Shown here in pieces: positions 7,344-55,089 of a DNA stretch of 64,000 nt. Below the pieces are notes generated by a model, which saw nothing but the letters and a program-made list of their open reading frames with translations, ran no database searches and was not told the origin of the DNA. Source of the DNA: Bacteroidota bacterium (GTDB lineage: Bacteria; Bacteroidota; Ignavibacteria; UBA10030); contig JAKAJH010000004.1 in assembly GCA_021813905.1 (NCBI GenBank), positions 53,654 to 117,653 on the forward strand. The letters run 5' to 3'. Both the position numbers and the translations under genes were made by a program. Numbering within the stretch: the first letter of the stretch is position 1; each line of letters begins with the position of its first letter.

Positions 7344-7472
7344 GAATATCTTCCTCAGTTTGTTGGATTTCATAAATAAGATACACAAATTTCATTGTGC
7401 CGGACAATGTTTTTCAGGATCAGACCAGCCTCCGGCGGCGATCGCATCTCTCCACTTCCGTTCGGTACGTAC

Positions 7473-9095: not shown

Positions 9096-9124
9096 ATTTC
9101 ATCCACTAGCAGGAGGAAACCACC

Positions 9125-9544
9125 ATGAGACTGCTCAAGGATTTCCGGGATTTCGCCATGCGCGGGAACGTGCTGGATCTCGCCGTCGGTATCATCATCG
9201 GCGCGGCATTCGGCAAGATCGTCAGCTCGATGGTGAACGATGTCCTGATGCCGCCGATCGGCGTGCTGATGGGCGGAGTAGATTTCAGCGCGCTCGGTGT
9301 CACGATCAAGGAGGCGACGACCGCATCGCCGGCGGTCCTGCTCCGGTACGGGGTGTTCGTGAACAACGTGATCGATTTCACGATCGTGGCATTCGCTGTC
9401 TTCCTCCTGATCCAGGCCGTGAATCGTCTGCAGCGAAAGAAGGAAACGCCTGCGGCACCCACCACCGCGCCCTGCCCGCATTGTCTGATGAGCATCCCCA
9501 TCGGCGCCAAACGGTGCGGACACTGCACTGCGACGCTCAGCTGA
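9125..9544 (+). CDS. mscL: Large-conductance mechanosensitive channel MscL, with a C-terminal Cys4 zinc-ribbon-like tail
   Basis: [46 protein letters not shown] is a canonical MscL N-terminus/TM1. AGGAGGA RBS. C-terminus reads [18 protein letters not shown]. Confidence 0.85.
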
Positions 9545-15852: not shown

Positions 15853-16611
15853 ATGCCTTCCGACCGCCGATCCGCTCCGTTGCGCGCCGTCATCGTGGAT
15901 GACGAGACTCCGGCCCGGCAGCTCCTTCGCGAGTATCTTGGCGACTTTCCCGGCATCGATCTGGTGGGAGAATGCGCGAACGGATTCGAGGCGGTGAAGC
16001 TCCTCCCTGAACTGAAGCCGGACCTGCTCTTTCTCGACATTCAGATGCCGAAGCTCACCGGCTTCGAAGTGCTGGAACTGATCGAGCCGCCGCCGGCGGT
16101 CATCTTCGCCACCGCGTACGACCAGTTCGCGCTCAAGGCCTTCGAGATCCACGCCGTGGACTATCTGCTGAAGCCGTTCAGCAAGGAGCGTCTCGCGGAA
16201 GCGGTGGATCGGGCCCGCGAACGCCTCCATCATCACCGAAAGTTGCCTGTCGCCTCCCTCGCCACGGAGGCGCGCGGCACGGGGACACCGCTCGAGAGAG
16301 TGCTGATCAAGGAGGGCTCCCGGGTCCACGTTATTCCGGTCGATCGGATCGACTACATCGAGGCGGAAGACGACTACGTGTCCATCCATGCCGACGGCAA
16401 GAAGCATCTGAAGCAGCAGCGTCTGACGGAGCTGGAAGGCCTGCTCGATTCGCAGCGCTTTGTCCGCGTTCATCGCTCGTTTATCATCAACATCGACCGG
16501 ATCGCGCGGATCGAGCTGTACGCAAAGGACAGCCGTGTGGCAATCCTGAAGGACGGCAGACAGCTCCAGATCAGCCGTTCCGGATACGAGAAGTTGAAAG
16601 ATCGTCTCTGA
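15853..16611 (+). CDS. LytTR-family response regulator
   Basis: REC domain (VIVDDE...LLFLDIQMP...YLLKP) plus a C-terminal LytTR domain (VHRSFIINIDRI). ATG directly abuts the kinase stop. Confidence 0.85.
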   Translation: MPSDRRSAPLRAVIVDDETPARQLLREYLGDFPGIDLVGECANGFEAVKLLPELKPDLLFLDIQMPKLTGFEVLELIEPPPAVIFATAYDQFALKAFEIHAVDYLLKPFSKERLAEAVDRARERLHHHRKLPVASLATEARGTGTPLERVLIKEGSRVHVIPVDRIDYIEAEDDYVSIHADGKKHLKQQRLTELEGLLDSQRFVRVHRSFIINIDRIARIELYAKDSRVAILKDGRQLQISRSGYEKLKDRL

Positions 16612-36593: not shown

Positions 36594-36710
36594 TCAACGC
36601 AGCAGGAACACGCGTGACACAACGGCCAGGATGAGCGCCAGAGCCGCCAGTGAGATGAGAGCGATCACCATGCGGCGGCGGTGCTGCAGATTCTGAGGGG
36701 GAGTGTTCAT
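36594..36710 (-). CDS. 38-aa single-TM micro-protein (candidate)
   Basis: MNTPPQNLQHRRRMVIALISLAALALILAVVSRVFLLR. GGGAGG RBS 5 nt upstream, high GC3. Lies in an otherwise empty 725-bp gap. Confidence 0.25.
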   Translation of the reverse strand: MNTPPQNLQHRRRMVIALISLAALALILAVVSRVFLLR

Positions 36711-37197
36711 CGGAGCCTCCCGGCAATCAGCGCCGGAGAACAGAGCGCGTGTGCTGACGGGCGTTGACCTGCGCGTTGTGTATCAGCGACTCACAAACGC
36801 CGCACAGAAGGATCGCGTACCGCGACCCGCCGACACACCGTTGGATCTTCCACACCCATGGCACGATTTGACGACATCGCGGGCAACGGTGCGGGCGGTG
36901 TTCCACCCGGACATCGATTCCCGATGGCATTGTCCCCCGGATCCGTCCGGCATCCCGTCGCACCATCCTCGCTCGTCTCCGCGTCGTGTTTCTTCTTGGC
37001 AGCACGGTACACAACGGAACCCATCCGTTCATCCGAATTCCGATAAGCGGCGAATCCCGTCGTCCGGCGGCAAACCGACCGGCAGCACCCACCCGCAGAC
37101 ACTCCATCCGACCAGCCGCTCGTCGAGTCCTGCTGCCGCTTGGCCGGGAGGTCTTTACTCTTGCGCAAGAAAGCGTCACATTGCTGCCGGAACGGCA

Positions 37198-38286
37198 ATG
37201 AGACGATTGCGCGACATTCTGCGGGGCGACTTTCGCACGCTCGGATTCTGGCATTTTCAGATCACCGGGTGGCTGCTGTTGTACGCAGGCGACATCGTCC
37301 TGATCATTGCCCGCGGGCGATCCCTGTCCGAGGGATTGACCGAGGCCTGCGAAACGCCGGTCGCCTTCCTTCTTTCCCTGGGACTGCGCCGGATTTACAC
37401 GCGCCTGGACTACAAGAGGCTCTCCGTGGTATCCCTGATCGCCTATCTCACCGTCTGGTCGCTGATCATTACGGGGGTCTGGTACGTGTTGATCGCCGCG
37501 ATCTGGTACTTCGCGATGAGCGCACGCATCGGCCTGGCGATGTTCGATCCCGGCTATGTGTTCCGGTGGCTGAATTATCTCGCACCGCTCTGGTTCTCCT
37601 GGAGCGCGCTCTACTTCGGGATCAAGTACTGGCGGGATTGGATCGACGAGAAGGAGCGCGCCCGCATCGCCACCGCTCTCGCGCAGAAGGCCCAGCTTCA
37701 GATGCTGCGGTACCAGCTCAATCCGCATTTCCTGTTCAACGCGCTCAATTCGCTCCGCGCGCTCATCGACGAGGACAAACGCCTCGCCAAAGGGATGATC
37801 ACGGAACTATCTGAATTTCTGCGCTACTCCCTCGTTTCCCGGCGCGCCACGAGCGTCCCGCTGCGCGACGAGCTCGACGCCATCCGGCACTACCTGGCCA
37901 TCGAGAAGAAACGGTTCGAAGACAAGCTCCAGGTATCGTTCGCCGTTGATCCGAAAGCCGAGGATGTTCCGGTCCTCAGCTTCCTCATTCATCCGCTTGT
38001 GGAGAACGCGGTCAAGTACGGCATGAAGACTTCCCCGATGCCGTTGCGGCTGAAATTGGAAGCGTCCGTCAATGACGGGGGATTGACGGTGGATGTGTGG
38101 AATTCGGGCCGGTGGCTCGACGAGAGCGATGCGGCGAAGCCCGGGGCCGGAACCGGTACGGGCCTCGAGAACACACGGGCCCGATTGGCCAACGCGTATC
38201 CCGGACGACACCATGTGGACGTGATCACCGAAGGCAATGCTGTTCACGTCCGGCTCCGCATCGACGAGATCCTGACCGAGGCGTGA
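37198..38286 (+). CDS. Sensor histidine kinase, 4TM + His_kinase + HATPase (paralog A)
   Basis: LNPHFLFNALNSLRALI, LVENAVKYG, GTGLEN. The upstream in-frame region 36703-37197 is low-complexity and probably non-coding. Confidence 0.75.
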   Translation: MRRLRDILRGDFRTLGFWHFQITGWLLLYAGDIVLIIARGRSLSEGLTEACETPVAFLLSLGLRRIYTRLDYKRLSVVSLIAYLTVWSLIITGVWYVLIAAIWYFAMSARIGLAMFDPGYVFRWLNYLAPLWFSWSALYFGIKYWRDWIDEKERARIATALAQKAQLQMLRYQLNPHFLFNALNSLRALIDEDKRLAKGMITELSEFLRYSLVSRRATSVPLRDELDAIRHYLAIEKKRFEDKLQVSFAVDPKAEDVPVLSFLIHPLVENAVKYGMKTSPMPLRLKLEASVNDGGLTVDVWNSGRWLDESDAAKPGAGTGTGLENTRARLANAYPGRHHVDVITEGNAVHVRLRIDEILTEA

Positions 38287-38289
38287 CGC

Positions 38290-39456
38290 ATGCGAGTACG
38301 TCTGACTCATCTTCGGGACTGGAGCTTCTGGCACTACCAGATTGCCGGGTGGCTGGTGTTTTGCGCCGGCAACCTTGCCGTCAATCTTCACGCGATGGGA
38401 TGGAATTCACGCGTCGTCGCCAGCCTTTGCCTTCAGGTGGTCGCGGCCGTCTCCCTCACACTCGGCCTGCGGCGTTACTATCGCCGGTTGCCGCATCGCG
38501 AGCTCGCACTGCCGGGCATCGTGTTCCGCATCGTGTTCTGTTCGTTCCTCGCGACGGTGGTGCTGCACGCGGCATTTCTCGGCATCGAGACGCTCTTCTT
38601 CGGAGCGAAATTCCTCGCGAAGGCCACTGCACATATCGCCTTCACGCTGCAGTGGATCGCGATCCTGTTCCCGGTGATGGTGGGCTGGAGCGCACTGTAT
38701 TTCGGCATCAAGTTCTATCGGGAATGGACCACCGAGCGCATCCGCGTTGAACAGGCCACCGAAGCGGCTCAGCGTGCCCAGTTACAGGCGCTTCGGTACC
38801 AGTTGAATCCGCATTTCCTGTTCAACACGCTGAACTCCGTGCGCGCCCTCGTGGACGAAGACAGCCGCCTGGCCAAGCAGATGGTCACCGAACTGGCGGA
38901 GTTCCTCCGCTATTCCCTGGTCAGCCGGAACAAGACCGAGCTCACGCTCAACGACGAACTGAATGCGATCCGACTGTATCTTTCCATCGAGCAGCGACGT
39001 TATGAGGACAAGCTCTCGGTGGCGTTCGACGTCGATCCCGATGCCGGCGACGTGCCGATGCCGAGCTTTCTGATCCATCCCATCGTCCAGAATGCCGTCA
39101 AGCACGGCCTCCGGACGAGCCCGATGCCGCTCCAGATCCGGATATCTGCGCACCGGACCGACACCAGGCTTCGGATCGAGGTCGCCAATTCGGGTTCGTG
39201 GATCGAGCCCGTGGAGGAAGAGCAGGACGCCGAGCTGGAGTTCGGTGCGGGACTCGAAAATGTTCGGGCCCGGTTGCAGGAAACATATTCCGGGCAACAT
39301 CACTTCGCGACGGAAGAACAGGACGGATTCGTCCACGCGGTTCTGGAAATACCGTTGCCGACGGGATCTCCGGGAGAAGCCGCTCCGGCGGTGACCTCCG
39401 GCCTGCTGTCGGGCTGGAACCGTCGACGCGCGCATCCGGAAAAGGTACCTTCATGA
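38290..39456 (+). CDS. Sensor histidine kinase, 4TM + His_kinase + HATPase (paralog B)
   Basis: Same motifs as paralog A; the two proteins are collinear. Start is 3 nt after the stop of paralog A. Confidence 0.8.
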   Translation: MRVRLTHLRDWSFWHYQIAGWLVFCAGNLAVNLHAMGWNSRVVASLCLQVVAAVSLTLGLRRYYRRLPHRELALPGIVFRIVFCSFLATVVLHAAFLGIETLFFGAKFLAKATAHIAFTLQWIAILFPVMVGWSALYFGIKFYREWTTERIRVEQATEAAQRAQLQALRYQLNPHFLFNTLNSVRALVDEDSRLAKQMVTELAEFLRYSLVSRNKTELTLNDELNAIRLYLSIEQRRYEDKLSVAFDVDPDAGDVPMPSFLIHPIVQNAVKHGLRTSPMPLQIRISAHRTDTRLRIEVANSGSWIEPVEEEQDAELEFGAGLENVRARLQETYSGQHHFATEEQDGFVHAVLEIPLPTGSPGEAAPAVTSGLLSGWNRRRAHPEKVPS

Positions 39457-40178
39457 AGAAGAAGCTTCGGGCTCTGATCGTAGACGACGAACGGCTCGCA
39501 CGCAAGGATCTGCGCACGCTGCTGATGGACGTGCCGACCGTCGAGGTCGCCGGTGAAGCGGACAGTGTTTCGTCTGCGGTCGCCATGATCGCGGAGATCG
39601 ACCCCGATCTGATCTTTCTGGACATCCAGATGCCGGGAGAATCGGGATTCGATCTGCTCGAGAGGACGGATCTTCGTGCCCGCGTTATCTTCGTGACGGC
39701 ATTTGACGAATACGCCATCCGCGCGTTTGAAGTCGATGCGGTGGACTATCTGCTGAAACCGGTCAGTCCGCAGCGGCTGGCGGCGGCCATTGAGCGGCTC
39801 GACCGGAAGACCGCCCCGCCGAACGGCAGCCGCCGCACGCTCTCCTTCGAGGATACGCTGTTCCTCTCCATCAATAATCACCTGAAATTCGTAAAGGTCA
39901 GCACGATCCAGTGCATCCAAGCCGCGGCGGATTATTCGGAGATCATGCTGTCTGACGGAAAGCGCGGTCTGGTTCAAAAATCGATGGCGGAGTGGGAGCA
40001 GCGGCTTCCCGCCGCACAGTTCTGCCGCATCCACCGCTCGACGATCATCAATCTGCAGGCCGTCGGCCGCGTGGAAGAGTGGTTCGGGGATTCGTATCAC
40101 GTCTATCTGGCGGGCGTGGAATCCCCGCTGGTCATGAGCCGCCGCTACGCCGTCCGGCTCAAAGAACGCCTCAGCTGA
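39453..40178 (+). CDS. LytTR-family response regulator 1
   Basis: LIVDDERLAR...LIFLDIQMP...YLLKP...IHRSTIINL; the ATGA overlaps the HK-B stop. Confidence 0.85.
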   Translation: MKKKLRALIVDDERLARKDLRTLLMDVPTVEVAGEADSVSSAVAMIAEIDPDLIFLDIQMPGESGFDLLERTDLRARVIFVTAFDEYAIRAFEVDAVDYLLKPVSPQRLAAAIERLDRKTAPPNGSRRTLSFEDTLFLSINNHLKFVKVSTIQCIQAAADYSEIMLSDGKRGLVQKSMAEWEQRLPAAQFCRIHRSTIINLQAVGRVEEWFGDSYHVYLAGVESPLVMSRRYAVRLKERLS

Positions 40179-40246
40179 ATTTGGGCCGTTGTTCCGCAGT
40201 AACTTCCCGCCACGGGATTTCGTATGCCGGAAGTAGTCCACAACCC

Positions 40247-41044
40247 ATGACGTCGTCCTCCCACCATCTGCGCATTCTCATCGCTGACGACGAGCGATTG
40301 GCCCGCACGAGCCTGCGCCGCGCGATCGACGAGCTCTCGGATGTTTCCGTCGTATCGGAATGCGACAGCGGACGCGAGGCCGAGCAGGCCATCCGCACAC
40401 TCCAGCCAGACGTTGCGTTTCTTGACGTGGATATGCCCGATCGGAACGGTCTCGACGTGGTCCGCGGCCTCGGTCCGGAACACGCCACCAAGATCATCTT
40501 CGTCACCGCGTATGAGGAGTATGCCCTGGAGGCGTTCCAGGTCCATGCGTTCGATTATGTGCTCAAACCGATCGATGGCGATCGTGTTCGACTTGCCGCG
40601 GAGCGTGCCCGCGAGCAGATTGTGCTCGAGAAGCACGGGGACGGACACGCTGTGCCCGACCCGGAGCTCTCGACGGTCCGGAGCGACGCCACGCAGTTGC
40701 ATCCCCGTTATCTCGACCGTCTCACCGTCCAGGCCGGCGAACGACTCACACTGGTCGATGTTGCGGATGTGGATTGGGTGGAAGCGTGGGGAGACTATGT
40801 GCGCATCCATTTGCACGGCCGGACGTTCACGATCCGCGAGAAGATCAGCGATCTCGAACGCCAGCTCGATCCCGGACGGTTTGCCCGCGTACACCGCTCT
40901 ACCATCGTACAGATTGCGCGGATCAAGGACCTGGTCCCGCTACTGCACGGCGACTATGAACTGACCCTCGCCGATAACACGCTGCTGCGTCTCAGCCGCA
41001 CGTATCGGCACCGCCTTTCCGAGCTGCTTCAGCATCATCTGTAA
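40247..41044 (+). CDS. LytTR-family response regulator 2 (orphan)
   Basis: ILIADDERLAR...AFLDVDMP...YVLKP...VHRSTIVQI. Confidence 0.85.
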   Translation: MTSSSHHLRILIADDERLARTSLRRAIDELSDVSVVSECDSGREAEQAIRTLQPDVAFLDVDMPDRNGLDVVRGLGPEHATKIIFVTAYEEYALEAFQVHAFDYVLKPIDGDRVRLAAERAREQIVLEKHGDGHAVPDPELSTVRSDATQLHPRYLDRLTVQAGERLTLVDVADVDWVEAWGDYVRIHLHGRTFTIREKISDLERQLDPGRFARVHRSTIVQIARIKDLVPLLHGDYELTLADNTLLRLSRTYRHRLSELLQHHL

Positions 41045-41211
41045 TCCACCGTTTCGCCTCCGCAGACCGTATTCGCTTCGTGTCCGTCCGCTCTGACCGT
41101 CCGCCGGACCGGCTCATCGTATTCCTGCAACCTTCCATCCCCCGGGCGCGTCTTTCGGGATAGAGACACCGGGAACCAATCATCACTCACTACTCGGTAC
41201 AGGAGGTCGCA

Positions 41212-41682
41212 ATGAAGACTCTGATGCTGTTCATGGTGCTCGCGGTGACTGTCGCCGCCGCGCAGCCGGCCGGATCCTCCGAGTCGGTGCTCCCCCCCAA
41301 CGTCAACAAAGCCATTGTGGAAGAGAACCTGCTGATCGGGCTTGCGTCGGGCAATCTCGGATTGCAGCGCAGCGCGGCGCTGATGCTCGGCAAGATCAGG
41401 TCCGACCGGGCAGTGATTCCCCTCATGGCCGTTCTCCACAACAGCGACCAGGAAAGCCTGCGGATCGCCGCGGCCTACGCCCTCTGTCGCATCGGTGACG
41501 CTCGCGGGACATTCGCCGTCCGCCGGGCTGTCAAGTTCGACGAATGCTGCCGGGTTCAGAATACCTGTGCCTGGTATTACGAAACCATGGTCAGCCCCGG
41601 CACGTTTGCCTTCGTCGGTATCAACACCGCGCCGGTGGACATCGCCGCCATTGCCGAACCGATCCTGGAAGCCGCTCCCTGA
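41212..41682 (+). CDS. Secreted HEAT-repeat (PBS-lyase-like) protein
   Basis: Signal peptide MKTLMLFMVLAVTVAAAQ; repeated LGxxxxxRAVxPLxxxL HEAT_2-like units. Confidence 0.55.
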   Translation: MKTLMLFMVLAVTVAAAQPAGSSESVLPPNVNKAIVEENLLIGLASGNLGLQRSAALMLGKIRSDRAVIPLMAVLHNSDQESLRIAAAYALCRIGDARGTFAVRRAVKFDECCRVQNTCAWYYETMVSPGTFAFVGINTAPVDIAAIAEPILEAAP

Positions 41683-41799
41683 CGAGACCCGATGCCTGCG
41701 CCGCGGCGGCATCGCAGCGCAGGTGCGAAACTCCTGGTCCTGCGTCACGATTTGCGAACATCGCGGCCGCCTACGGGCGGCCGCGGCATATCCGGCACA

Positions 41800-42531
41800 A
41801 TGATGACACCAACTCCGATTCTCCATGCCGTGATCGTCGACGACGAGCGGCTCGCGCGGGCAAGTCTTCGGTCCCTGCTGGCGGATCACCCGGATGTCGC
41901 GGTCGTCGGAGAAGCCGACACGGTTCGCAGCGCCCGGCGGCTGATTCTCGATCACCGGCCGGACGTCGCGTTCCTTGACATCTGCCTGGCGGGAGAAAGC
42001 AGCTTCGACGCTATGACAGAACTGTCTGCGTCGGTCCGGGTTGTGTTCGTCACGGGATACGCGGAATACGCGACCCGGGCGTTTCGCGTCGGCGCCATCG
42101 ACTACCTGCTGAAGCCCGTCGATCCGGCGCACCTGACAGAGGCCCTGGACCGCATCCGGCGACTTGTGGGGCGCGAGCCGGAAGACCCGCCACTGGACGC
42201 CGAGGATACGATCTTTCTGCGTTTGGGTGGGCGGTACCAGTTCGTGCGCGTGCGGGCCATCCGGTGCATCACGGCAGACGGTCCATACTCCCGAGTCGCG
42301 ATGGACGACGGACGCAAAGGGATCGCTTCGCCAGCGCTGAAGGAATGGGAAGAACGGCTGCCGGGCCGGCTGTTTGTACGAGTGCACCGCTCCGCGCTCG
42401 TCAACCTGGAGCACGTGGACCGCGTCGAGCCGAACGGCGATCACTCGTACTTGCTGCACATGAAGGGCGGCTGTGAGCCGTTGCCCATGAGTCACCGGTG
42501 CTTCACGCGGATCCGGACGCTGATGGGATGA
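41800..42531 (+). CDS. LytTR-family response regulator 3 (orphan)
   Basis: VIVDDERLAR...AFLDICLAGESS...YLLKP...VHRSALVNL. Confidence 0.8.
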   Translation: MMTPTPILHAVIVDDERLARASLRSLLADHPDVAVVGEADTVRSARRLILDHRPDVAFLDICLAGESSFDAMTELSASVRVVFVTGYAEYATRAFRVGAIDYLLKPVDPAHLTEALDRIRRLVGREPEDPPLDAEDTIFLRLGGRYQFVRVRAIRCITADGPYSRVAMDDGRKGIASPALKEWEERLPGRLFVRVHRSALVNLEHVDRVEPNGDHSYLLHMKGGCEPLPMSHRCFTRIRTLMG

Positions 42532-42557
42532 TCGTGCCGGTTATCCGCACTTCCGGA

Positions 42558-42776
42558 CGTTCGTACGACAAACGACCACGTTCATTCAAAACCGTTCGGC
42601 CGGACCGCCCTCCGGTCGTATCTTAAACCATCAGCAGGGTGCGGTCCTGAATGAACGAGGATGCTCTGCTGCCAAACTTGACGCGTCTCTCACAGGTCAC
42701 CTCCTTCTCCCCTGTTCCGCGTCAAGCGAGATTCACCGGCAGCAGAGATCCTCGTTTCGTTCCCGATTCGTTCCCG
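42558..42776 (+). promoter_or_regulatory. Cluster of (A/C)CGTTC direct repeats in the susC upstream/leader region (candidate LytTR-regulator sites)
   Basis: CGTTC at 42558, 42579, 42594, 42758 and 42769 (the last two within the tandem TTCGTTCCCG-N1-TTCGTTCCCG); spacings of 21, 15 and 11 nt. Confidence 0.25.
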
Positions 42777-42818
42777 GCTCGCATCGCCGATCGCTCACTC
42801 ACTACAGGAGGCCTGACC

Positions 42819-45713
42819 GTGAAAAGACCAACCATGTTCTCGCTGCTGCTGTGCGCATTGCTCTGCGCACATTGCATTCTGGTTGCGCAGACGACGGTCC
42901 ACGGCCGGGTCACGGACGCCAGATCCGGCGCCGGACTGCCCGGCGTGGCCGTGCACATACAATCGCTGGGTGTTGGCACGTACACCAACGCCGACGGGGA
43001 GTATGAATTCGTCGTCCCGGCTGAGAAGGTTCGTCGGGACGCCGTGATCCTCACCGCGAAGCTGATGGGGTATAAAGAGAAGACCCAGCGGATCATTCTC
43101 ACGGCGGGTCCGATTTCAGCAGACTTCGCGCTCCTGGAGGATGTCTTCCAGAGCGACGAGGTCGTCGTAACCGGCATTGCCTCAAAGACAGAGAAGTCCG
43201 TTGCGGAGGTTGCCGTCGCCCGCATCGACGCGGCCGGACTTCAGGATCTGAGCGCGTACGCCGGCGTCAACCAGCTCGTGGACGGGAAGATCCCCGGCGT
43301 TCAAATGACGACGGCGTCCGGGAACATCGGATCCGGATGGCGGTTCTTCGTCCGCGGCGGTGGCGGACTGAACGGGAACGGCCAACCTGTCATTTACGTC
43401 GATGGCACGCGTATCGAAAACGACGAGGTCGGCTCGACCTGGGGCGTGGGCGGACAGGCGATCAGCACACTCGCCAATCTGAACACGAACGACATCGAGA
43501 AGATCGAATTCCTGAAAGGGCCGGCGGCGGCGTCAATGTACGGCGCGAACGGTTCCAACGGGGTCATGCTGATCACCACGAAAGCCGGCGCACTCGCACA
43601 GACTCCCGGCGGCATGAACGTAAACTACAACTTCACATATGGCTGGAACGAACAGCTGACGCCGTACAGCAAGGATGAGTACCTCAACGCCGACACGGCC
43701 AATGCCATGTTCCGCAAGGGACTCATCCGCGCTCACTATCTGAGCCTGGCCGGCGGAAACAACACGCTGCGCTATTTCACGTCGTTTGAAAGCCGGCGTG
43801 AAGACGGCCACTTTCCCCTCACGTGGGGAGACCGGAATACCGTCCGCCTGAACCTGACGGCAGTGCCGGCACAGAATGTCTCGGTGAAACTCAATGCAGG
43901 GTACGCGAAGAACCGCATGAATGTCCCCAATCAGGATAACTCCGCCTGGGGTATTCTCGGCAACACGCTGCTCGTCGCGAATCCGTGGTTCTTCGTCCCG
44001 AAGAATGATATCACCCGACTGGTGGATGTGGTTGACGGTACGCAGTTCATCGGCGGTGCGGCGATGACGTACTCACCGGTGGCCGATCTCGAGCTGAAAG
44101 GCGGCGTCGGGATCGACAACAGCACATGGCGGCAGGACGACATTGCGCCGTTCGGCGGCCAGTTCGGCAGCGTGACACGCGGAGCCACGAACATCTACGA
44201 CCGTCTGAACCGGCAGATCACATATGATTTCGGCGCCGCGTATGCCTGGTCGCCGTTCGACAATCTGTCGATCCGCTCCATCGCCGGCGGTCAGTTCTTC
44301 GACCGACGCTTCAACAGCATCGAGGTGAACGCCGAGGAATATTCGACGCCGCTGATCACGGATCTCGGATCGGCCGGAAAGATCACGGGATACGGCGAGA
44401 CGTTCCGGAACACGCGGGACGGCGGTCTCTACACGGAACACTCGGCCGGATATCTCGATCAGTACTTCCTGACGCTCGGCGTACGGCAGGACTTCGCCAG
44501 CGTCATCGGCAAGTCGGCGCCGTCGATCGTCTATCCGAAGGCAAGCGCCGCATGGAGGCTGGACAGGTACGAGTTCTTCCCGTCCGACGTTGTCCAACTG
44601 CTCAAATTGCGCGCCGCATACGGCGAGAGCGGTGTGCTGCCCCGGCTTCTCGACGGTGCCAGCGTCTACTATACCGCCCTCGTCTCGGCGTACGGGGCGG
44701 GGGGTGTCCCGACCGTGTGGGGCAATCCCGCCATCAAGCCGGAACGCGTGCGCGAAGTGGAAGCGGGCATCGACGCCGAGGTCGCCAACGCGGTCTCACT
44801 CGAATTCACAGGCTACACCCAGAAGGCGACCAACTCCATCGTGGATATGCCGGTGGCGCCGTCGCTGGGACTCTCCACGACCCGGCCGTTCAACATCGGC
44901 GAAGTGGACCTCTGGGGATTCGAGTCGATGGTGCAGGTGACACCGCTGCGCTCGGACGACTACGACCTGCGCATCGGTCTTATCTGGAACTTCCAGCGGA
45001 ACGAGGTGAAGAGCATCGGCGGTCGGGGTGCCATCACCTCCGACAATAATGTGATCATGGAAGGCAAGCCGAAATATGAGTTCCTGGCGTACACCTCCAC
45101 GGCGGCGTTCGATTCCGCCGGCGTGTATGCGGGTGCCGTGCCGTCCGCAGACAAAGTCGATCTCGGCAATCCGATCCCGAAGTACACCGGATCGGTCACG
45201 GTCGACTTCCGCTTCCTGAAGAACTTCACGTTCTACGCGTTCGGGGAGTGTGGACTCGATATGAAGCGGTTCAACTATACGCGCCAGTTCTCGATGCTGA
45301 TGGGCGGCAACGCCGAGCGCATCCGGATGCGTGCGCAGCTCGGCTTCGCACCGTCGTCCTCGGTGACACCGCTGACGCCGGGCACGCCCGAGTATCGCGC
45401 CGTGGCGGAGAAGTACGGCCGCCTGAATCCCAACTTCGACGGGAATTTCATCGAAGACGCCGACTACTTCGTCATTCGTGAGGTAAGCCTGAGCTACAAC
45501 TTTCGCGATGCGCTCAACGCCCTCAGCCCGTTCTCGGTACTCAAAGGACTGACGGTGGGTGTGTCCGTGCGGAACTTGTGGCGCACGACGAAGTACTCCG
45601 GGGTCGACGTGGAAACAAACTACGCCGGAAGCCGGACCGTGACAGTGGGAGAGGAATTCCTGACACTTGAAACCCCGCGGACCTGGAATTTCTGGGTCAA
45701 AATGGGACTGTAA
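42819..45713 (+). CDS. SusC/RagA-family TonB-dependent outer-membrane transporter
   Basis: GTG start preceded by AGGAGG; signal peptide; carboxypeptidase-regulatory-like N domain (TTVHGRVTDARSGAGLPGV); TonB-box region; 22-strand barrel length; C-terminal ...NFWVKMGL. Confidence 0.85.
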   Translation: MKRPTMFSLLLCALLCAHCILVAQTTVHGRVTDARSGAGLPGVAVHIQSLGVGTYTNADGEYEFVVPAEKVRRDAVILTAKLMGYKEKTQRIILTAGPISADFALLEDVFQSDEVVVTGIASKTEKSVAEVAVARIDAAGLQDLSAYAGVNQLVDGKIPGVQMTTASGNIGSGWRFFVRGGGGLNGNGQPVIYVDGTRIENDEVGSTWGVGGQAISTLANLNTNDIEKIEFLKGPAAASMYGANGSNGVMLITTKAGALAQTPGGMNVNYNFTYGWNEQLTPYSKDEYLNADTANAMFRKGLIRAHYLSLAGGNNTLRYFTSFESRREDGHFPLTWGDRNTVRLNLTAVPAQNVSVKLNAGYAKNRMNVPNQDNSAWGILGNTLLVANPWFFVPKNDITRLVDVVDGTQFIGGAAMTYSPVADLELKGGVGIDNSTWRQDDIAPFGGQFGSVTRGATNIYDRLNRQITYDFGAAYAWSPFDNLSIRSIAGGQFFDRRFNSIEVNAEEYSTPLITDLGSAGKITGYGETFRNTRDGGLYTEHSAGYLDQYFLTLGVRQDFASVIGKSAPSIVYPKASAAWRLDRYEFFPSDVVQLLKLRAAYGESGVLPRLLDGASVYYTALVSAYGAGGVPTVWGNPAIKPERVREVEAGIDAEVANAVSLEFTGYTQKATNSIVDMPVAPSLGLSTTRPFNIGEVDLWGFESMVQVTPLRSDDYDLRIGLIWNFQRNEVKSIGGRGAITSDNNVIMEGKPKYEFLAYTSTAAFDSAGVYAGAVPSADKVDLGNPIPKYTGSVTVDFRFLKNFTFYAFGECGLDMKRFNYTRQFSMLMGGNAERIRMRAQLGFAPSSSVTPLTPGTPEYRAVAEKYGRLNPNFDGNFIEDADYFVIREVSLSYNFRDALNALSPFSVLKGLTVGVSVRNLWRTTKYSGVDVETNYAGSRTVTVGEEFLTLETPRTWNFWVKMGL

Positions 45714-45727
45714 GGAGGCGACCGACT

Positions 45728-46945
45728 ATGAAAACGACTCTCAAATATCTTGTGGCGTTCCCGCTCCTGGCGCTGTTCCTGTCGGCATGCGAAAGTTTCA
45801 TCAACGATGTGGAACCGCTCAAGGATTATGCCGCGAACGACAAGCTGAACTCGGAAGAGCACATGGACTTCCTGATCGTCGGCGTACAATCGCAGTTCGC
45901 GGACGCCTCGAGCCAGGTGGCCGGCCTGTCGGATCTGCTCTCCGATCAGCTGATCTTCACCAACATGATGCCCCTGGCAACGTATCCGCAATATGCGGAG
46001 ATCGAGCCCGGGCAAATTCTGCTGGACAATAACAGCGTCGCCGCCGTGTTTCAGTCCGTCTGCCGCCTGCGCCGGGTTGCCGATGACCTCGTGCAGCGTA
46101 CCGGGGACATCGCCTTCAGCGACACGGCGAAGCGGCACCAGGCGTATGCGGTCGGATATCTGTACGGGGGACTGGCACGCTACTATCTCGCCACGTCGTT
46201 CGGAATCAACCCGACCTCGCCGGGCGGCGTGATCGACGGCGGTCCGTTCATCGCCCAGTCAGACCTTCTCGACGACGCGGTCGCGCATTTCGAAGCTGCC
46301 GTTGCGCATCAGTTCAGCCTGACGGAACAACGGATCACCAACTCCCTCATCGCGCGCGCGTATCTGGCGAAGAAGGACTATGCCCATGCCGCGACGTTTG
46401 CCGCACAAGGCATGCTGCAGGGCGAGGATCCGTTCGTGTGTCTTTATAACGACGTCTCGCAGAACTTCTACTACACCGACGCCGGTTACGGGCGCCAACA
46501 GATGGGCGTGGCGGACCGGTTCGCGGCCTACATCGCCGCCGATCCGGCGGAAGCCGTCCGCATACCGCTCGACTCTCTGATCGGGCGGGACGGCGGAACC
46601 TATTACTTCCAGGTGAAGTACCCGCTCGCCGGGAGCAGCTTCCCGATCATGACCTGGCAGGAGAACAGCCTGATGTCGGCAGAGTGCGCCCTTCGGGGAT
46701 CGGGTGCGGGCGATGCGCTCGCGTTGGTCAACGACGTGCGCGGCTCTCACGGCCTCAGCAGTCTCAGTTCGGTCGATCTTGCCGGCCTCATGGTCGAGCG
46801 GGACAAGGAGCTGTTCTGCCAAGGCGACCGACTGATGGATGAGAATCGCGGTGCCGTGCCGTGGCATCTGGGAACCGGCGACTGGCACGTCCTTCCGATT
46901 CCACGCGCGGAACGGGATGCAAATCCCAACCTGCCGCCCTTGTGA
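45728..46945 (+). CDS. SusD/RagB-family lipoprotein
   Basis: Lipobox LALFLSAC; 14 nt after susC; helical/TPR-like. At 405 aa it is shorter than typical SusD proteins. Confidence 0.6.
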   Translation: MKTTLKYLVAFPLLALFLSACESFINDVEPLKDYAANDKLNSEEHMDFLIVGVQSQFADASSQVAGLSDLLSDQLIFTNMMPLATYPQYAEIEPGQILLDNNSVAAVFQSVCRLRRVADDLVQRTGDIAFSDTAKRHQAYAVGYLYGGLARYYLATSFGINPTSPGGVIDGGPFIAQSDLLDDAVAHFEAAVAHQFSLTEQRITNSLIARAYLAKKDYAHAATFAAQGMLQGEDPFVCLYNDVSQNFYYTDAGYGRQQMGVADRFAAYIAADPAEAVRIPLDSLIGRDGGTYYFQVKYPLAGSSFPIMTWQENSLMSAECALRGSGAGDALALVNDVRGSHGLSSLSSVDLAGLMVERDKELFCQGDRLMDENRGAVPWHLGTGDWHVLPIPRAERDANPNLPPL

Positions 46946-46982
46946 TCAACGCACGATGACGCTGTCCCGTACGGCGAACTCA

Positions 46983-47011
46983 GGCCCCGCACCCGCGGGG
47001 CCTTTTTGTTT
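46983..47011 (+). terminator. Rho-independent terminator after susD
   Basis: GGCCCCGC-ACCC-GCGGGGCC followed by TTTTTGTTT. Confidence 0.7.
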
Positions 47012-47086
47012 GAGAACCGCCGCCGTCTCTTCAATTGACTGTCTGGCAATATTCATCTACCATCCGTGGGGTAGAACCCGCACCGT

Positions 47087-47773
47087 ATGCGAATCCTCGT
47101 CGTCGAAGATGAACAGAAAGTCGCCCGTTTCCTCAAGCGCGGCCTTGAGGCGGAAGGCTACCGCGTCGAGACCGCAGCCGACGGAAAGTCAGGCGAGACG
47201 CTCGCGCGTTCGAACACATTCGATCTCGCCATCCTGGACGTCGTGCTCCCCCGCAAGAACGGTTTCGAAATCCTTCGCGATCTCCGGAATGAAGGCCACA
47301 AGCTGCCCGTGCTGATGCTCACCGCCCGCAGCGCCACGGAAGACATCGTCAGCGGCCTGGACCTCGGCGCCGACGACTACCTGACAAAACCCTTCGCCTT
47401 CGATGAACTCCTGGCCCGGATCCGACTTCTGCTCCGCCGGCAGGTACAGTCCCGCACGCGTCTGACCGTGGGGGATCTGGTGCTGGACACGATCAGCCAC
47501 GAGGCGGTGCGCGGCGGAAAGAAGATCGAGTTGACGAGCCGCGAGTACAAGATGCTCGAGATCTTCATGCGCAATCCCGGGAAGCTCCTGAGCCGTGCGG
47601 ATCTTGCCCGGGAGGTGTGGGGATACGACTTTGACCCCGGCACCAACGTGGTCGACGTGTATGTCAATCACCTTCGCAAGAAGGTTGATCAGGGGTTCGA
47701 AATCAGACTGCTGCAGACAGCGCGCGGCAAGGGATACTTCATCACCGACCGATCGCCCGCCTCCCTCTTATGA
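47087..47773 (+). CDS. OmpR-family response regulator
   Basis: MRILVVEDE ... winged-helix C-terminus (LTSREYKMLEIFMRNPGKLLSR). Confidence 0.85.
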   Translation: MRILVVEDEQKVARFLKRGLEAEGYRVETAADGKSGETLARSNTFDLAILDVVLPRKNGFEILRDLRNEGHKLPVLMLTARSATEDIVSGLDLGADDYLTKPFAFDELLARIRLLLRRQVQSRTRLTVGDLVLDTISHEAVRGGKKIELTSREYKMLEIFMRNPGKLLSRADLAREVWGYDFDPGTNVVDVYVNHLRKKVDQGFEIRLLQTARGKGYFITDRSPASLL

Positions 47774-49278
47774 CCTTTCTTCACTCCATCCGCTGGCGGC
47801 TCACGCTGTGGTACGCTGTCGTCTTCGGTGTGACGATCATCGGAGCCGGCATCACCGCCTACTTCATCACACGGTCGACGATGTTGGACAACCTGGATCG
47901 TTCGCTGCGGAACGAGGTCAAATGGGTCAATGAATTCATCGAGCCGCGCGCCAAGCGCATCCCGCTCAAACGGGCCGCGTTGCGCGAGCTGGAGGAACTG
48001 AAGCGCTCCGCCGCTGCCCAGACCGATGAGAGCGACCAGGCGTCCGACGTCTCCGACGAGGAACGCGCCGCCAGCGACGAGATGTGGGAACAGATCTACC
48101 AGCACACCCTCCTCAGCCCCCGGCGCCATTTCATTCAGATCCTCGACCGGAACGGGGACCTGCTGTACCGGTCCCAGAGTCTCCGGGGATACGCCATCCG
48201 CTATGACGACATTCCGTACCAATGGATCAACGTCGTGTCAACGCAGCTCGAAGACGGCGAGGATATTCGCCTGGCTCTGATGCAGAACAACTACGTCAAG
48301 ATATTCGTCGCCTATCCCCTTGAACCGGTACACGAGGTGCTCGACAGTGTCTTTACGAACGTCCTGCTGATCGTCCCCATCGCCCTGCTGATCTCCATTG
48401 TCGGCGGCTGGTTCCTGGCGCACAAATCACTGAAGCCCGTCGATAATCTGACCCGAGCGGCCCGGGAGATCACGGCACGGAATCTGAACCGACGCCTGCC
48501 GGCACTCCGCGGAGACGATGAGCTGGGCCGGCTGACGGAACAGTTCAACGACATGATCGGCCGGCTGCAGGCTTCGTTTGAGCAGGTCCAGGAGTTCTCC
48601 GCGGACGCTTCGCACGAACTCCGCACACCGCTGACCATCATGCGAGGGGAGATCGAGGTTGCGCTGCGGAACGCGCGCCTGTCGCGCAGCACGCGGGAAA
48701 TCTTTGAGAGCGTGCATCACGAGATCATCCGGATGTCCTCCATCGTCGAAAGTCTGCTGATCCTGACCAAGGCCGAGACGGGACGTCAGGCGTTCACGTT
48801 TTCCGCCATCGCCCTCGACGAGCTGGTGCGGCAGATCGCCGAGGATGCGCGCGTCCTCGCCGAACCGAAGCACATCCGCGTCAAGGAAGAGCGGATGGAC
48901 CACGTCATGGTCGCAGCGGACGGCGCCCGTCTGCGTCAGCTCCTCCTGACGCTCGTGGACAATGCCGTCAAGTTCACGCCGGCGCGGGGCACAGTGACGC
49001 TGTCCGTTGTCCACGCCGGATCGACCGCGCACATTCGCGTGAAGGACACCGGCATCGGAATTCCCCGCAAGGATCAGGAGCGGATCTTCGAACGATTCTA
49101 TCGCGTCGTGCGTGACGATGATTCCGGGGGGACAGTGCCGGAGGGAAGCGGACTCGGCCTGTCGATCGCCCGGTGGATCGCCGAAGCACATAACGGTACG
49201 ATCTCCGTCGAAAGCCGTGAGCGACGCGGAAGCATGTTCACAGTCTCCCTGCCGCTTTCTCCCCCGTTGAAGGGCTGA
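47770..49278 (+). CDS. Sensor histidine kinase (TM-periplasmic-TM-HAMP-HisKA-HATPase)
   Basis: SHELRTPLT H-box, N/G1/G2 boxes; 4-nt overlap with the regulator. Confidence 0.8.
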   Translation: MTFLHSIRWRLTLWYAVVFGVTIIGAGITAYFITRSTMLDNLDRSLRNEVKWVNEFIEPRAKRIPLKRAALRELEELKRSAAAQTDESDQASDVSDEERAASDEMWEQIYQHTLLSPRRHFIQILDRNGDLLYRSQSLRGYAIRYDDIPYQWINVVSTQLEDGEDIRLALMQNNYVKIFVAYPLEPVHEVLDSVFTNVLLIVPIALLISIVGGWFLAHKSLKPVDNLTRAAREITARNLNRRLPALRGDDELGRLTEQFNDMIGRLQASFEQVQEFSADASHELRTPLTIMRGEIEVALRNARLSRSTREIFESVHHEIIRMSSIVESLLILTKAETGRQAFTFSAIALDELVRQIAEDARVLAEPKHIRVKEERMDHVMVAADGARLRQLLLTLVDNAVKFTPARGTVTLSVVHAGSTAHIRVKDTGIGIPRKDQERIFERFYRVVRDDDSGGTVPEGSGLGLSIARWIAEAHNGTISVESRERRGSMFTVSLPLSPPLKG

Positions 49279-52549: not shown

Positions 52550-54940
52550 CTATTTCAGAAGCATCATCTTCTTTACCATCCGGGTCGGACCGGAGGTCAG
52601 CACGTAGAAGTACGTGCCGCTCGGGAGCCGATCGGCTTCGAAGACGATGCTGTACGTACCCATGGGCACCACGTCTTCGATCAGCGTGGCCACCTCGCGA
52701 CCGAGCAGATCGTACACTTTGAGCGTTGTCATTCCGGACTGCGCAACGCTGAACGCGATCGTCGTCGTCGGATTGAACGGATTCGGATAGTTCTGCGCGA
52801 GCAGATACTCCATCGGTACGGTGCCGTCGCCGGACGTCACCGAGACGATCGAGGTCGTTCGGAATCGGGCTTCGACGGACAGATCGCTTTCGCCGGCGCT
52901 GTTGGTTGCCGTCACGGTCCACGAGTGATTCTTCAGCGCCTGGAGCGTTGTCTGACAGACTAGCGTCGTATCGGTGACGACCGTATCGATCACGACAACC
53001 CCGGGGAGGGACGCGATATTCAGCACACGGATGTGATACGACGTCGCCGGACATTTCCGCCAGACGAAGGTCGGCTTGAGCGGCACATTCGTGATGCCGA
53101 CGGGACTCACCAGAGCCGGCGGCAATGGCCAGCCCGTGTGGAAACTCGCCGGCGACGCATACGGACTCGCCGATCCCTGATTTCCCGCGGCGACCCGCCA
53201 GTAATACGTTGTCTGCGCCTGCAGTCCCGCCGTCAGCGCCGTTGTGTCCGCCGTCTGGAGAGAGGCCACCAGCGCACCGGCGCCGAAATCCGGAGCCGAC
53301 GCGAGTTCCAGGCGATATACCATCGCGCCCGTCGATGACTGCCAGGTCAGGGCTCCTCCACGCGCGAAATTCTGTTCCCCTTCCGCCGGCGTGGCAAGCA
53401 TGGGCGCCTGGACCGCGGCCGAGATGGGAACAACATTGCTCAGTCCGCTTTCGTTGTTGTTTCGATCAAACGCGGAAACGGCGTAGTAGTACTGGACATT
53501 CGCGCTGTCGATGCGCGCCGGAGGGATCCGGGATGTCACCCCCGTCAACGCCAGCATGTTCACCGGATGATCGGCATCGGACGGTAGGACAGATGATTGG
53601 GTAAACCGATACACCACGTACCGTCTGATCGAATCACCGTCTCCGGAAGGTGCCGGAGCGTTCCATGTCAGCTGGTAATTTCCGTCCATCCCCGGCCCGG
53701 ACACTGCCAGGTTGGAGGGGGCCTGAGGACGCGTCGTATCCTTCCATCCCATGACGGGAATGATCGACGGGCTGCGGAAGGACGTCGTGCTCAGTGTGCT
53801 CGCGAACGATCCGGTGACGCTGCCCGCCCGGAACAGGATACAGCCGCTTGCCCCCGACGAGTTGCGATTGAAATCGATCTGGGCGCCGATCGTCGAGATC
53901 CCCAGGGGAGCATAGTTGCCAGTGTACAGTTGCCGGCCGGCCGACGTTGCCTGCCCGACCCACCACGGCTGCAGCAGCGCGTAATCCTGGCCACCGCCGA
54001 ATCCCCAGTACAACTGCGGCGTGATGTAGTCAATGTATTTCCCGCTGATCCACGCAACCGCATCACAGTAGATGGTGCTGTACGCATCCATGCCGGCAAT
54101 CCCCTGTGGCACGCCGTTCTTCCAGATGCCGAACGGACTCATCCCCACCTTCACCACCGGACGGATCGCCTGCACACTGTCGTAAATCTGATGGATGAGC
54201 AGATTCACGTTGTCCCGGCGCCACGGTGCAAGACTGTCCGGGAAGGCAAATCCACGCGGATATTGGTGGAACGTCGACGTATCCTCCTTCGTAAAGCCGT
54301 GTTCCGGGTACGGATAGAAGTAGTCGTCCATATGGACGCCATCCACATCGTAACGCCGCACGACGTCCGCAATAACCTTGGCGACGAAATCCCGGACTTC
54401 CTGCAAGCCGGGATTCAGGAATTTGTATCCGTCCGGACATGTCAGCACCCACTCCGGATGCAGCTTTGTCACATGGTTCGCCGCGGTCGGATACGTGTCG
54501 GTCTCCCGATAGGCCCGATAGGGATTGAACCACGCGTGGATCTCCATCCCTCGCGTGTGCGCCTCTGTCACCGCAAAGGTGAGGGGATCATAGCCGTCGC
54601 CGGGTGCTGTTCCCTGCGTGCCGGTCAGCCAGTACGACCACGGCTCATACGGCGAATTGTAGAACGCATCGCACTCCGGACGCACCTGGAAGATGACCGC
54701 GTTGACTCCGGACGCGGCGAGATTATCCAGGATCGCTGTCAGTTGCGATCGCTGCGTGGCCGGACTGAGACCGCGGGATGATGGCCAGTCCAGGTTGGTC
54801 ACAGTCGCGATCCAGGCTCCGCGGAACTCCCGTTTGGGAACCGACGAAGCGGCAAGCACGCTCGGGCTCTGCGCGGAAAGTCCTGACACAACAGCGGTCA
54901 GTAGAACGACAAGAAGATGGATCCGGAATCGAAGAGACAT
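52550..54940 (-). CDS. GHL10 (DUF187, family-10 glycosyl-hydrolase-like) protein with Fn3-like domains and a T9SS C-terminal sorting domain
   Basis: Signal peptide; [17 protein letters not shown]...[26 protein letters not shown]-barrel core; C-terminal ...[21 protein letters not shown]. Confidence 0.7.
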   Translation of the reverse strand: MSLRFRIHLLVVLLTAVVSGLSAQSPSVLAASSVPKREFRGAWIATVTNLDWPSSRGLSPATQRSQLTAILDNLAASGVNAVIFQVRPECDAFYNSPYEPWSYWLTGTQGTAPGDGYDPLTFAVTEAHTRGMEIHAWFNPYRAYRETDTYPTAANHVTKLHPEWVLTCPDGYKFLNPGLQEVRDFVAKVIADVVRRYDVDGVHMDDYFYPYPEHGFTKEDTSTFHQYPRGFAFPDSLAPWRRDNVNLLIHQIYDSVQAIRPVVKVGMSPFGIWKNGVPQGIAGMDAYSTIYCDAVAWISGKYIDYITPQLYWGFGGGQDYALLQPWWVGQATSAGRQLYTGNYAPLGISTIGAQIDFNRNSSGASGCILFRAGSVTGSFASTLSTTSFRSPSIIPVMGWKDTTRPQAPSNLAVSGPGMDGNYQLTWNAPAPSGDGDSIRRYVVYRFTQSSVLPSDADHPVNMLALTGVTSRIPPARIDSANVQYYYAVSAFDRNNNESGLSNVVPISAAVQAPMLATPAEGEQNFARGGALTWQSSTGAMVYRLELASAPDFGAGALVASLQTADTTALTAGLQAQTTYYWRVAAGNQGSASPYASPASFHTGWPLPPALVSPVGITNVPLKPTFVWRKCPATSYHIRVLNIASLPGVVVIDTVVTDTTLVCQTTLQALKNHSWTVTATNSAGESDLSVEARFRTTSIVSVTSGDGTVPMEYLLAQNYPNPFNPTTTIAFSVAQSGMTTLKVYDLLGREVATLIEDVVPMGTYSIVFEADRLPSGTYFYVLTSGPTRMVKKMMLLK

Positions 54941-55089
54941 GGTGATTTCTTTCCGAGATGGCTCATGAACGGAATCCACGCCGACACGGTGGCCCGCGAT
55001 GCGATCGACGGTCCGGTACAGCGGTGGCGAGAAGGCGTATCGATCGCCGGCGGTCGGGCTCCCGGAGAAGGAACCCGGCCGTCAACGGG

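Follow-up and report, generated by a model that had tools for sequence, protein, structure and literature searches.

This study concerns a block of LytTR signaling genes that lies directly upstream of a SusC/SusD pair within a 64-kb stretch of DNA (hereafter, the window), which has a G+C content of ~61% and whose best protein matches come from Ignavibacteria, Melioribacter, and other metagenome-assembled genomes (MAGs) of the Bacteroidota group. The block encodes two membrane histidine kinases (HK1 and HK2), three response regulators (RR1, RR2, and RR3), and a small secreted HEAT-repeat protein, followed by the two components of the importer. All eight of these genes had been listed in an initial annotation made from the sequence alone, and all eight were found at the coordinates it gave; the same genes were also called independently on metagenome and MAG contigs from the source organism (e.g., GCA_027400455.1, in which the locus is identical). 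The annotation had portrayed the block as one expanded LytTR system, and while the genes themselves hold up, comparison of the regulators points to two modules of different evolutionary history rather than to a single expansion. Judged by these sequence relationships, the block is a juxtaposition of two conserved modules: module A, an AlgZ/AlgR-like two-component system of the LytS/LytTR class comprising HK1, HK2, RR1, and RR3, and module B, an independently conserved cassette of RR2 and the HEAT gene that seems to have been captured inside module A. Coordinates below are window positions unless a different locus is named, and window features lie on the + strand except where stated.

HK1 (37198-38286; 362 aa) and its tandem paralog HK2 (38290-39456; 388 aa) are separated by a gap of 3 nt between the HK1 stop codon (TGA, 38284-38286) and the HK2 ATG at 38290. 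They had been described as collinear tandem duplicates, and the two proteins indeed align collinearly across 347 residues at 47% identity, with the N-terminal membrane part included. Both match the PF06580 His_kinase model (94.3 bits for HK1 and 90.2 bits for HK2; cutoff, 25.2), and the LNPHFLFN motif with the phosphoacceptor histidine is invariant in the kinase alignment. The HATPase_c domain is divergent, scoring 24.7 and 26.1 bits in the two kinases, just under the Pfam gathering cutoff of 26.4. An N box (ENAVKYG) and a G2 box (GTGTGL in HK1) can be recognized, and NSG(x)W takes the place of DxGxG in the G1 box throughout the kinase subfamily, which includes HK1, HK2, and the kinases of three loci from the comparative survey described below (L037, L096, and L097). 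The atypical G1 box and the sub-cutoff HATPase_c domain together recall AlgZ, which is itself atypical. Hydropathy and alignment place about four hydrophobic or transmembrane (TM) segments within residues 15-145 of both kinases, with no periplasmic domain, and Pfam returns only His_kinase and HATPase_c for them, with no 5TMR-LYT or GAF domain. Tandem kinases ahead of an RR1-type gene are likewise found in L097, the closest kinase relative found in a metagenome sample. The pairwise identities among HK1, HK2, and the L097 pair are all 43-47%, and a neighbor-joining tree pairs the paralogs within each genome; these sequence data fit an ancient duplication and independent duplications equally well.

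RR1 (39453-40178) is translationally coupled to HK2 through the ATGA overlap at 39453-39456 that had been noted initially, and it is followed by RR2 (40247-41044) and, after the HEAT gene, by RR3 (41800-42531). REC and LytTR domains score above the Pfam cutoffs in all three regulators, and their alignment shows no variation in the receiver signature residues (the DDE motif, the Asp in FLD, the Thr in FVT, and the Lys in KP). RR1 and RR3 are 46-47% identical to each other, and RR2 is divergent, with 32-35% identity to either. RR1 is ~50% identical to the regulators that adjoin SusCD in other Ignavibacteriota, and the LytTR domain of RR2 is 50-53% identical to those of LytTR proteins that precede HEAT genes elsewhere; in both cases, we call these proteins orthologous. 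Pairwise comparison thus splits the regulators cleanly, those adjacent to HEAT genes being of the RR2 type (five other loci) and those adjacent to SusC being of the RR1 type. RR3, a lineage-specific paralog of RR1, has no ortholog above 52% identity outside its own species, and its orthologs were for that reason dropped as a probe of a link between RR3 and susC; the two nearest examples examined, L177 and L178, are ordinary pairs of a kinase and a regulator. Among NCBIfam models, BtsR and LytR match the three regulators best, with BtsR scores of 153, 148, and 117 bits against an equivalog cutoff of 246.

The SusC/RagA-type TonB-dependent transporter is encoded at 42819-45713. Its most likely start is the GTG at 42819 (MKRPTMFSLLL), which has AGGAGG ahead of it, and with this start, the distance of 288 nt originally given from the RR3 stop to susC is exact. 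The protein has a CarboxypepD_reg N-terminal extension (CarbopepD_reg_2 in Pfam), a Plug domain, and a barrel, with no STN domain; it passes the TIGR04057 signature model (52.7 versus 46.2) and falls marginally below TIGR04056 (365.8 versus 368.25). Beginning 15 nt past the susC stop, a second gene (45728-46945) encodes a short SusD/RagB-fold lipoprotein of 405 aa with a lipoprotein-type N-terminus (LLALFLSAC, with the cysteine at position 21). This SusD-like protein fails the sequence models (PF07980, 20.1 versus 23.1; no NCBIfam match), and its assignment comes from the N-terminus and from an AlphaFold2 (AF2) model with a predicted local distance difference test (pLDDT) score of 88, for which the top 50 Foldseek matches in the PDB all belong to the SusD superfamily or RagB, with E values down to 1e-11 and TM-scores of ~0.7.

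A strong intrinsic terminator (46982-47003, within a terminator region at 46982-47013) closes the susCD unit, and no terminator of comparable strength was found between HK1 and susD. Downstream of it lie genes for an OmpR-type regulator and a HAMP/HisKA kinase (47087-49278), a metallophosphoesterase, and PBP1A. The OmpR-type pair has the same orientation as susD and starts 142 nt beyond it, and this adjacency raises the alternative that it, rather than the LytTR block, encodes the real regulators of susCD. However, the strong terminator and a separate promoter-like site belonging to the pair intervene, and no such pair stands beside SusCD orthologs, the matches there being only distant OmpR-like ones more than 5 kb away in L039 and L093. 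Control of susCD by the OmpR-type pair is accordingly the explanation to which we give the least credence, and we consider it highly improbable. The locus had been described as departing from the classic regulator arrangement of a polysaccharide utilization locus (PUL), and this description is accurate: there is no hybrid two-component system (HTCS), SusR, or extracytoplasmic function (ECF)/anti-sigma gene nearby, SusC is without STN, and no carbohydrate-active enzyme (CAZyme) gene is adjacent. The nearest glycosidase-like genes, encoded on the opposite strand ~5.6 kb past susD, are tandem paralogs (52550-54979 and 55090-57510, both −) for proteins of ~806-809 aa that combine GHL10 (PF02638), fn3, and a type IX secretion system (T9SS) C-terminal sorting domain. 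The block is not the sole system of its kind in the window, as a further PF06580 histidine kinase (14791-15852) and an adjoining LytTR regulator (15853-16611) are also encoded, and given this additional pair, the source genome is rich in PF06580/LytTR systems. Rfam returned no structured RNA anywhere in the window, and a scan for sigma-70 promoters gave no informative result within the block.

Recurrence of the gene set at other SusCD loci

For a comparative view, 78 genomic loci with this SusD family were screened by tblastn and with hidden Markov models (HMMs) from the window proteins. The family is widespread, occurring in Ignavibacteriota, KSB1, Calditrichota, and Rhodothermales, and is found mostly in housekeeping contexts. 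At 5 of the 78 loci (L037, L040, L043, L045, and L096), all from Ignavibacteriota, a PF06580 kinase and an RR1-type regulator divergently adjoin susC, and the SusCD pair of these linked loci is paralogous to that of the window. A divergent gene of the HEAT family follows the regulator, behind a terminator, in three of them (L037, L040, and L045). The same five kinds of genes, for a kinase, an RR1-type regulator, a HEAT-like protein, SusC, and SusD, are therefore found together again in a different arrangement, and this speaks for a functional link. Conservation of the exact order (kinase-kinase-regulator-regulator-HEAT-regulator-susCD) had been put forward as a check on the initial annotation, and this order was found in the source organism only; genome and metagenome scans did not turn up the complete seven-gene order a second time, and identical-protein lookups led back to the same organism.

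It is possible that the adjacency is fortuitous, with the LytTR units regulating themselves, the HEAT gene, or distant targets and susCD being a constitutive or otherwise regulated housekeeping importer that happened to land downstream. Consistent with this, most SusCD orthologs have housekeeping neighbors and no LytTR genes, PF06580/LytTR pairs of the generic kind are very numerous and hardly ever found beside SusC (those examined here were not SusC-linked), LytTR-HEAT cassettes occur without SusCD, and the window itself carries the other such pair at 14791-16611. However, coincidence would not readily account for the recurrence of the five-member gene set in a second layout, nor for the position of the top repeat array of the window, which is found exactly upstream of susC and on the correct strand (see below). 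We therefore regard fortuitous adjacency as an unlikely explanation, albeit one that deserves to be taken seriously.

The surroundings of these and related loci offer some indications of cargo. Beside the kinase/regulator-linked SusCD pair, L037 (11333-20123) and L040 (11996-20993) contain a cluster resembling genes for peptidoglycan recycling or use, with a beta-lactamase-family hydrolase, a MurQ-like SIS protein, a GNAT protein, a PD40 protein, a T9SS-tailed N-acetylmuramoyl-L-alanine amidase, and a NagB-like protein, and this cluster hints at a muropeptide cargo for the paralogous importer. Genes for secreted M16 metallopeptidases lie beside kinase-RR1-type pairs in L097 (5645-8455, −) and L100 (1687-4686, +); in the latter, there is one (truncated) kinase gene, and the RR1-type regulator gene is followed directly by that for the M16-like peptidase. 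In L016/L018, a gene for a secreted M13 metallopeptidase (7232-9271, +) is directly beside the LytTR-HEAT cassette discussed below. The M16 and M13 neighbors may hint at a link to the use of proteins or peptides.

Direct-repeat arrays upstream of HK1 and susC

Each of the five linked loci has 9-bp direct repeats of the form ACCG[CT]T[TC]AT (ACCGYTYAT), 20 bp apart, that face the kinase operon, along with a second pair toward susC in which one copy is strong and the other weak. A kinase-facing pair of this type is also present in L097, and a more degenerate version (TCCTTTTAT-20-ACCATTTAC) is found in L098. Between the divergent kinase gene and susC, each of the five linked loci also has an open reading frame (ORF) of ~70-110 aa for a protein with two TM segments (in L037, within 6465-7090). 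This ORF is flanked by the kinase-side repeat pair on its upstream side and by the susC-side pair on its downstream side, and it has no equivalent in the window. A weight matrix was constructed from the sites of L037, L040, L096, and L097 only and scanned over both strands of the 64-kb window, with an architecture of direct repeats at a spacing of 20/21 bp imposed on the ranking of pairs and triples.

The best triple repeat of the whole window (42536-42585) is found upstream of susC on the susC strand. It forms part of a LytTR/AlgR-like array of 9-mers (42516-42600) that faces susC and starts within the last 16 nt of RR3, with the boxes GACGCTGAT (42516), GCCGGTTAT (42536), GACGTTCGT (42556), and CACGTTCAT (42577) at spacings of 20/20/21 bp and a further box, ACCGTTCGG, at 42591. 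Pairs from this array rank second and third in the window, and it is the only spot in the window where three copies of CGTTC fall within 45 nt. A cluster of LytTR-type 9-mers at 37004-37051, ~150-190 nt upstream of HK1, is a candidate autoregulatory site; it consists of the direct pair ACGGTACAC/TCCGTTCAT on the + strand (37004 and 37024) and GCCGCTTAT on the − strand (37043-37051). The best single matrix match of the window is at 37042 (−), and the match at 37024 (+), 18 nt away, is in the top 10; the pair 37004/37024 ranks fifth of all pairs in the window, and two of the four copies of GATRARCGG in the window fall within the cluster. A second direct pair upstream of HK1, GCCGCTCGT-N11-GCCGCTTGG (37115-37143), ranks ninth among the pairs spaced by 20/21 bp. 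Four of the top 10 pairs (ranks 2, 3, 5, and 9), all on the + strand, are thus located upstream of susC or HK1, and the repeats in these two regions are statistically enriched: of 500 column-permuted matrices used as a control, 14 placed their top triple in either region, and none placed more than two of their top 10 pairs there (5 of the 500 reached two), versus the four observed. The 725-nt gap upstream of HK1 also contains an ORF for a single-TM peptide of 38 aa (MNTPPQNLQHRRRMVIALISLAALALILAVVSRVFLLR; 36594-36710, −), for which one metagenome contig carries a gene call and toward which the strongest LytTR half-site (37042, −) points.

BrsR binds ACCACTTAT-12 bp-ACCGCTTAT (PMC6193735), and AlgR binds 9-mers of the form CCGTTCGTC, often at several sites per promoter (PMC4064291). 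Because the repeats of the window and the linked loci match these published sites in form, we read them as LytTR operator architecture. At SusCD loci that have no neighboring regulator, the boxes are generally absent; five of these loci reach a rank of ≤3 versus ~2 expected, and only L093 (AP024675.1, a complete genome) is convincing, with a perfect ACCGTTCAT-N12-ACCGTTCAG at 6781-6810, ~200 nt ahead of a susC that belongs to the same family. No LytTR gene is present within 10 kb of that site, and the neighbors are a LigT-like gene and a TonB gene.

Given the evidence presented here, we favor, with moderate confidence, an explanation in which the kinase-regulator lineage of module A switches the susCD importer on. 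HK1 and HK2, as intramembrane-type sensors, would phosphorylate RR1 and probably also RR3, and the phosphorylated regulator would bind the arrays of 9-bp direct repeats (ACCGYTYAT, with a period of 20-21 bp). Binding at the array upstream of HK1 would lead to positive autoregulation, as in other LytTR systems, and binding at the array upstream of susC would activate the SusCD importer, whose unit ends at its own terminator and stands outside any CAZyme-containing PUL. Meanwhile, RR2 would control the HEAT gene from the conserved spacer between the two. Of this scheme, the genes present, their paralogous and orthologous relationships, the recurrence of the gene set, and the repeats with their enrichment are observations; we infer DNA binding, the direction of regulation, the partners in phosphotransfer, the signal, and the substrate.

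Several observations weigh against this explanation. The closest SusCD orthologs (50-54% identity, ~23 loci) are found among truA, a short-chain dehydrogenase/reductase (SDR) gene, a MiaB-like radical-SAM gene, rpsA, and cmk, with no regulator, CAZyme, or repeats nearby. The initial annotation had proposed that a branched or many-to-one phosphorelay gates outer-membrane nutrient import, and although two independent in silico lines, the recurrence of the gene set and the repeat arrays, speak for a regulatory link between the LytTR system and susCD, these closest orthologs have neither; because they are without regulators and repeats, any link between LytTR regulators and SusCD would be lineage-specific. 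The closest kinase-RR1 relatives found (L097, which adjoins an M16 peptidase gene, and L100) are not beside SusCD, and the five supporting genomes may reflect one ancestral event. As for the repeats, those upstream of susC are degenerate, with 7-8 of 9 matches each, and are 220-300 nt away from the start codon; the two strongest half-sites upstream of HK1 are inverted rather than direct, and the evidence assigns no array specifically to RR1, RR2, or RR3. The matrix was derived from AT-rich genomes and could be biased toward intergenic DNA, which is richer in AT; the permutation control is a partial answer to this concern. Finally, with HATPase_c below the Pfam cutoff and NSG in place of DxG in the G1 box, the activity of the kinases is only predicted.

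The RR2-HEAT cassette

The small protein encoded between RR2 and RR3 (41212-41682; 156 aa) had been annotated as a secreted HEAT-repeat protein, and we agree with this assignment. HEAT_2 scores 28.3 bits against a Pfam cutoff of 27.7, a single N-terminal hydrophobic segment, which resembles a cleavable signal, ends in AAAQP, and the AF2 model (pLDDT 83) consists of six helices that form three HEAT repeats. The protein belongs to a conserved family of ~146 aa. Foldseek matches its model to alphaRep and other HEAT-like repeat proteins, with a root mean square deviation of 1.5-2.0 Å over ~93 residues; an attempt to derive a function from the fold was abandoned, as these matches are only generic HEAT/alphaRep ones.

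Genes of this family are found directly downstream of a LytTR gene in L011, L014, L016, and L018 and beside a kinase-LytTR pair in L012, and SusCD is absent from all five of these loci; a more distant HEAT locus, L017, has no LytTR gene. Because the HEAT-adjacent regulators are all of the RR2 type, RR2 and the HEAT gene represent an ancestral two-gene cassette that now stands between RR1 and RR3. The RR2-type proteins of L011 (9385-9858), L016 (9346-9834), and L018 (9347-9667) have no receiver, and that of L014 (8960-9790) has a degenerate receiver that has lost its acidic pocket, so the cassette can presumably work without phosphorylation. The intergenic gap between the LytTR and HEAT genes is 140-360 nt in every locus and contains blocks that are conserved across genomes of very different G+C content. 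In the window, it corresponds to the 167-nt spacer at 41045-41211, which contains blocks conserved upstream of HEAT genes elsewhere and is a probable promoter or regulatory region of the HEAT gene. This constant spacer with its conserved blocks suggests that the HEAT gene has its own regulated promoter, and on these comparisons, the LytTR protein of the cassette most likely controls the HEAT gene from the spacer.

The initial annotation had instead suggested that the HEAT protein could be a periplasmic co-sensor, that is, an accessory protein that relays a cue to the loop-less HK1 and HK2. Intramembrane-sensing kinases often need accessory proteins, and HK1 and HK2 have no periplasmic domain. 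A HEAT-like gene comes after the kinase-regulator pair in three loci (L037, L040, and L045) and neighbors such a pair in L012, and the HEAT fold is a generic scaffold for protein binding. However, the LytTR gene ahead of the HEAT gene encodes no receiver in L011, L016, and L018, where no kinase gene is present within 10 kb, and in L014, the receiver is degenerate; moreover, the spacer with its conserved blocks, together with the terminator in L037-type loci, gives the HEAT gene the appearance of a separately controlled target. Because the RR2-HEAT cassette occurs elsewhere without SusCD or kinases, with orthologs of the HEAT gene mostly following a kinase-less and often receiver-less LytTR gene, the HEAT protein is probably not a co-sensor of the kinases, and we consider that role improbable.

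Two further features adjoin the HEAT gene. The GC-rich spacer between it and RR3 (41683-41799) is predicted to form two long hairpins with no U-tract (minimum free energy, −57.7 kcal/mol; z = −2.0) and could be a transcript-processing or attenuation element. The 10-mer CACTCACTAC, followed by ACAGGAGG/AGGAGG, precedes the starts of both the HEAT gene and susC (41184-41193 and 42796-42805, respectively), and these are the only two exact copies of the 10-mer in the 64 kb. It may represent a shared leader or translation element and was not used as evidence of co-regulation.

Relation to known systems and significance

The closest characterized analog of module A is AlgZ (FimS)/AlgR of Pseudomonas aeruginosa, judged by architecture and boxes. 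AlgZ has four N-terminal TM helices that make up a sensor of ~150 residues, no periplasmic domain, and an atypical ATP-binding region, and AlgR is a REC-LytTR protein (PMC4064291). HK1 and HK2 share all three of these kinase features, and the regulators of the window are likewise REC-LytTR proteins. The resemblance extends to the boxes, as CCGTTCATC, ACGTTCGTA, and CCGTTCGGC of the window match 7-8 of the 9 positions of the CCGTTCGTC consensus and share a CCGTTC-type core. In contrast to AlgZ/AlgR, the system described here is found in another phylum, its kinase is tandem-duplicated, it has three regulators, and its inferred target is SusCD rather than alginate or pilus genes; NCBIfam returned no AlgR-specific model for the window regulators.

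The combination of a PF06580 kinase with a LytTR regulator is also shared with BtsS/BtsR and YpdA/YpdB of Escherichia coli and with LytS/LytR of Firmicutes. The two E. coli systems induce nutrient transporter genes through direct repeats. Unlike in these systems, the regulators of the window score far below the equivalog cutoffs, the kinases are without 5TMR-LYT or GAF domains, and the proposed target is in the outer membrane. Module B loosely resembles the HdrRM/BrsRM LytTR Regulatory Systems (LRS) (PMC6193735), in that the gene after RR2 encodes a small protein with a hydrophobic segment at its N-terminus, some RR2 orthologs are without a receiver, as are LRS regulators, and a direct-repeat architecture is found in both. 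In contrast to HdrRM, the partner is a secreted HEAT protein with virtually no cytoplasmic part rather than a multi-pass membrane inhibitor, the receiver of RR2 itself is intact, and a 167-nt spacer takes the place of a tight operon.

SusCD importers are the hallmark systems for nutrient uptake in the Fibrobacteres-Chlorobi-Bacteroidetes (FCB) group, and their known regulators (HTCS, SusR, and ECF/anti-sigma) come almost entirely from gut Bacteroides. The importer of the window resembles RagAB/SusCD in its SusC signature motif, its SusD/RagB fold and lipoprotein signal, and the order susC then susD, but its SusD is short (~400 aa), escapes the Pfam and NCBIfam models, and belongs to a family that mostly occurs in housekeeping contexts. 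As in a canonical PUL, dedicated regulator genes are found immediately beside the susC-susD pair, but none of the usual regulators, no STN-bearing SusC, and no adjacent CAZymes accompany them. Full-text literature searches returned no paper describing LytTR control of SusC/SusD.

A wider interpretation, which we put forward tentatively and hold to be doubtful, is that AlgZ/AlgR-like systems acting through ACCGYTYAT arrays constitute an unrecognized class of dedicated SusCD regulators in Ignavibacteriota and some FCB neighbors, with a non-classical cargo and with LytTR-HEAT as a new envelope cassette. The genes linked to SusCD in L037 and L040 would then suggest peptidoglycan fragments as cargo, the M16 and M13 neighbors would suggest peptides, and the LytTR protein with its secreted HEAT partner would be a Gram-negative counterpart of the LytTR Regulatory Systems. 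Even so, induction of a transporter by a two-component system is ordinary biology, and the finding is incremental rather than paradigm-changing. If LytTR control of SusCD in Ignavibacteriota is true, it would add a class of regulator together with a predicted operator sequence, so that regulons could be read from the genomes of uncultured lineages, and it would provide a first handle on the 4-TM PF06580 kinases, which are very abundant but uncharacterized in these phyla. The conserved LytTR-HEAT cassette represents a second small, testable module.

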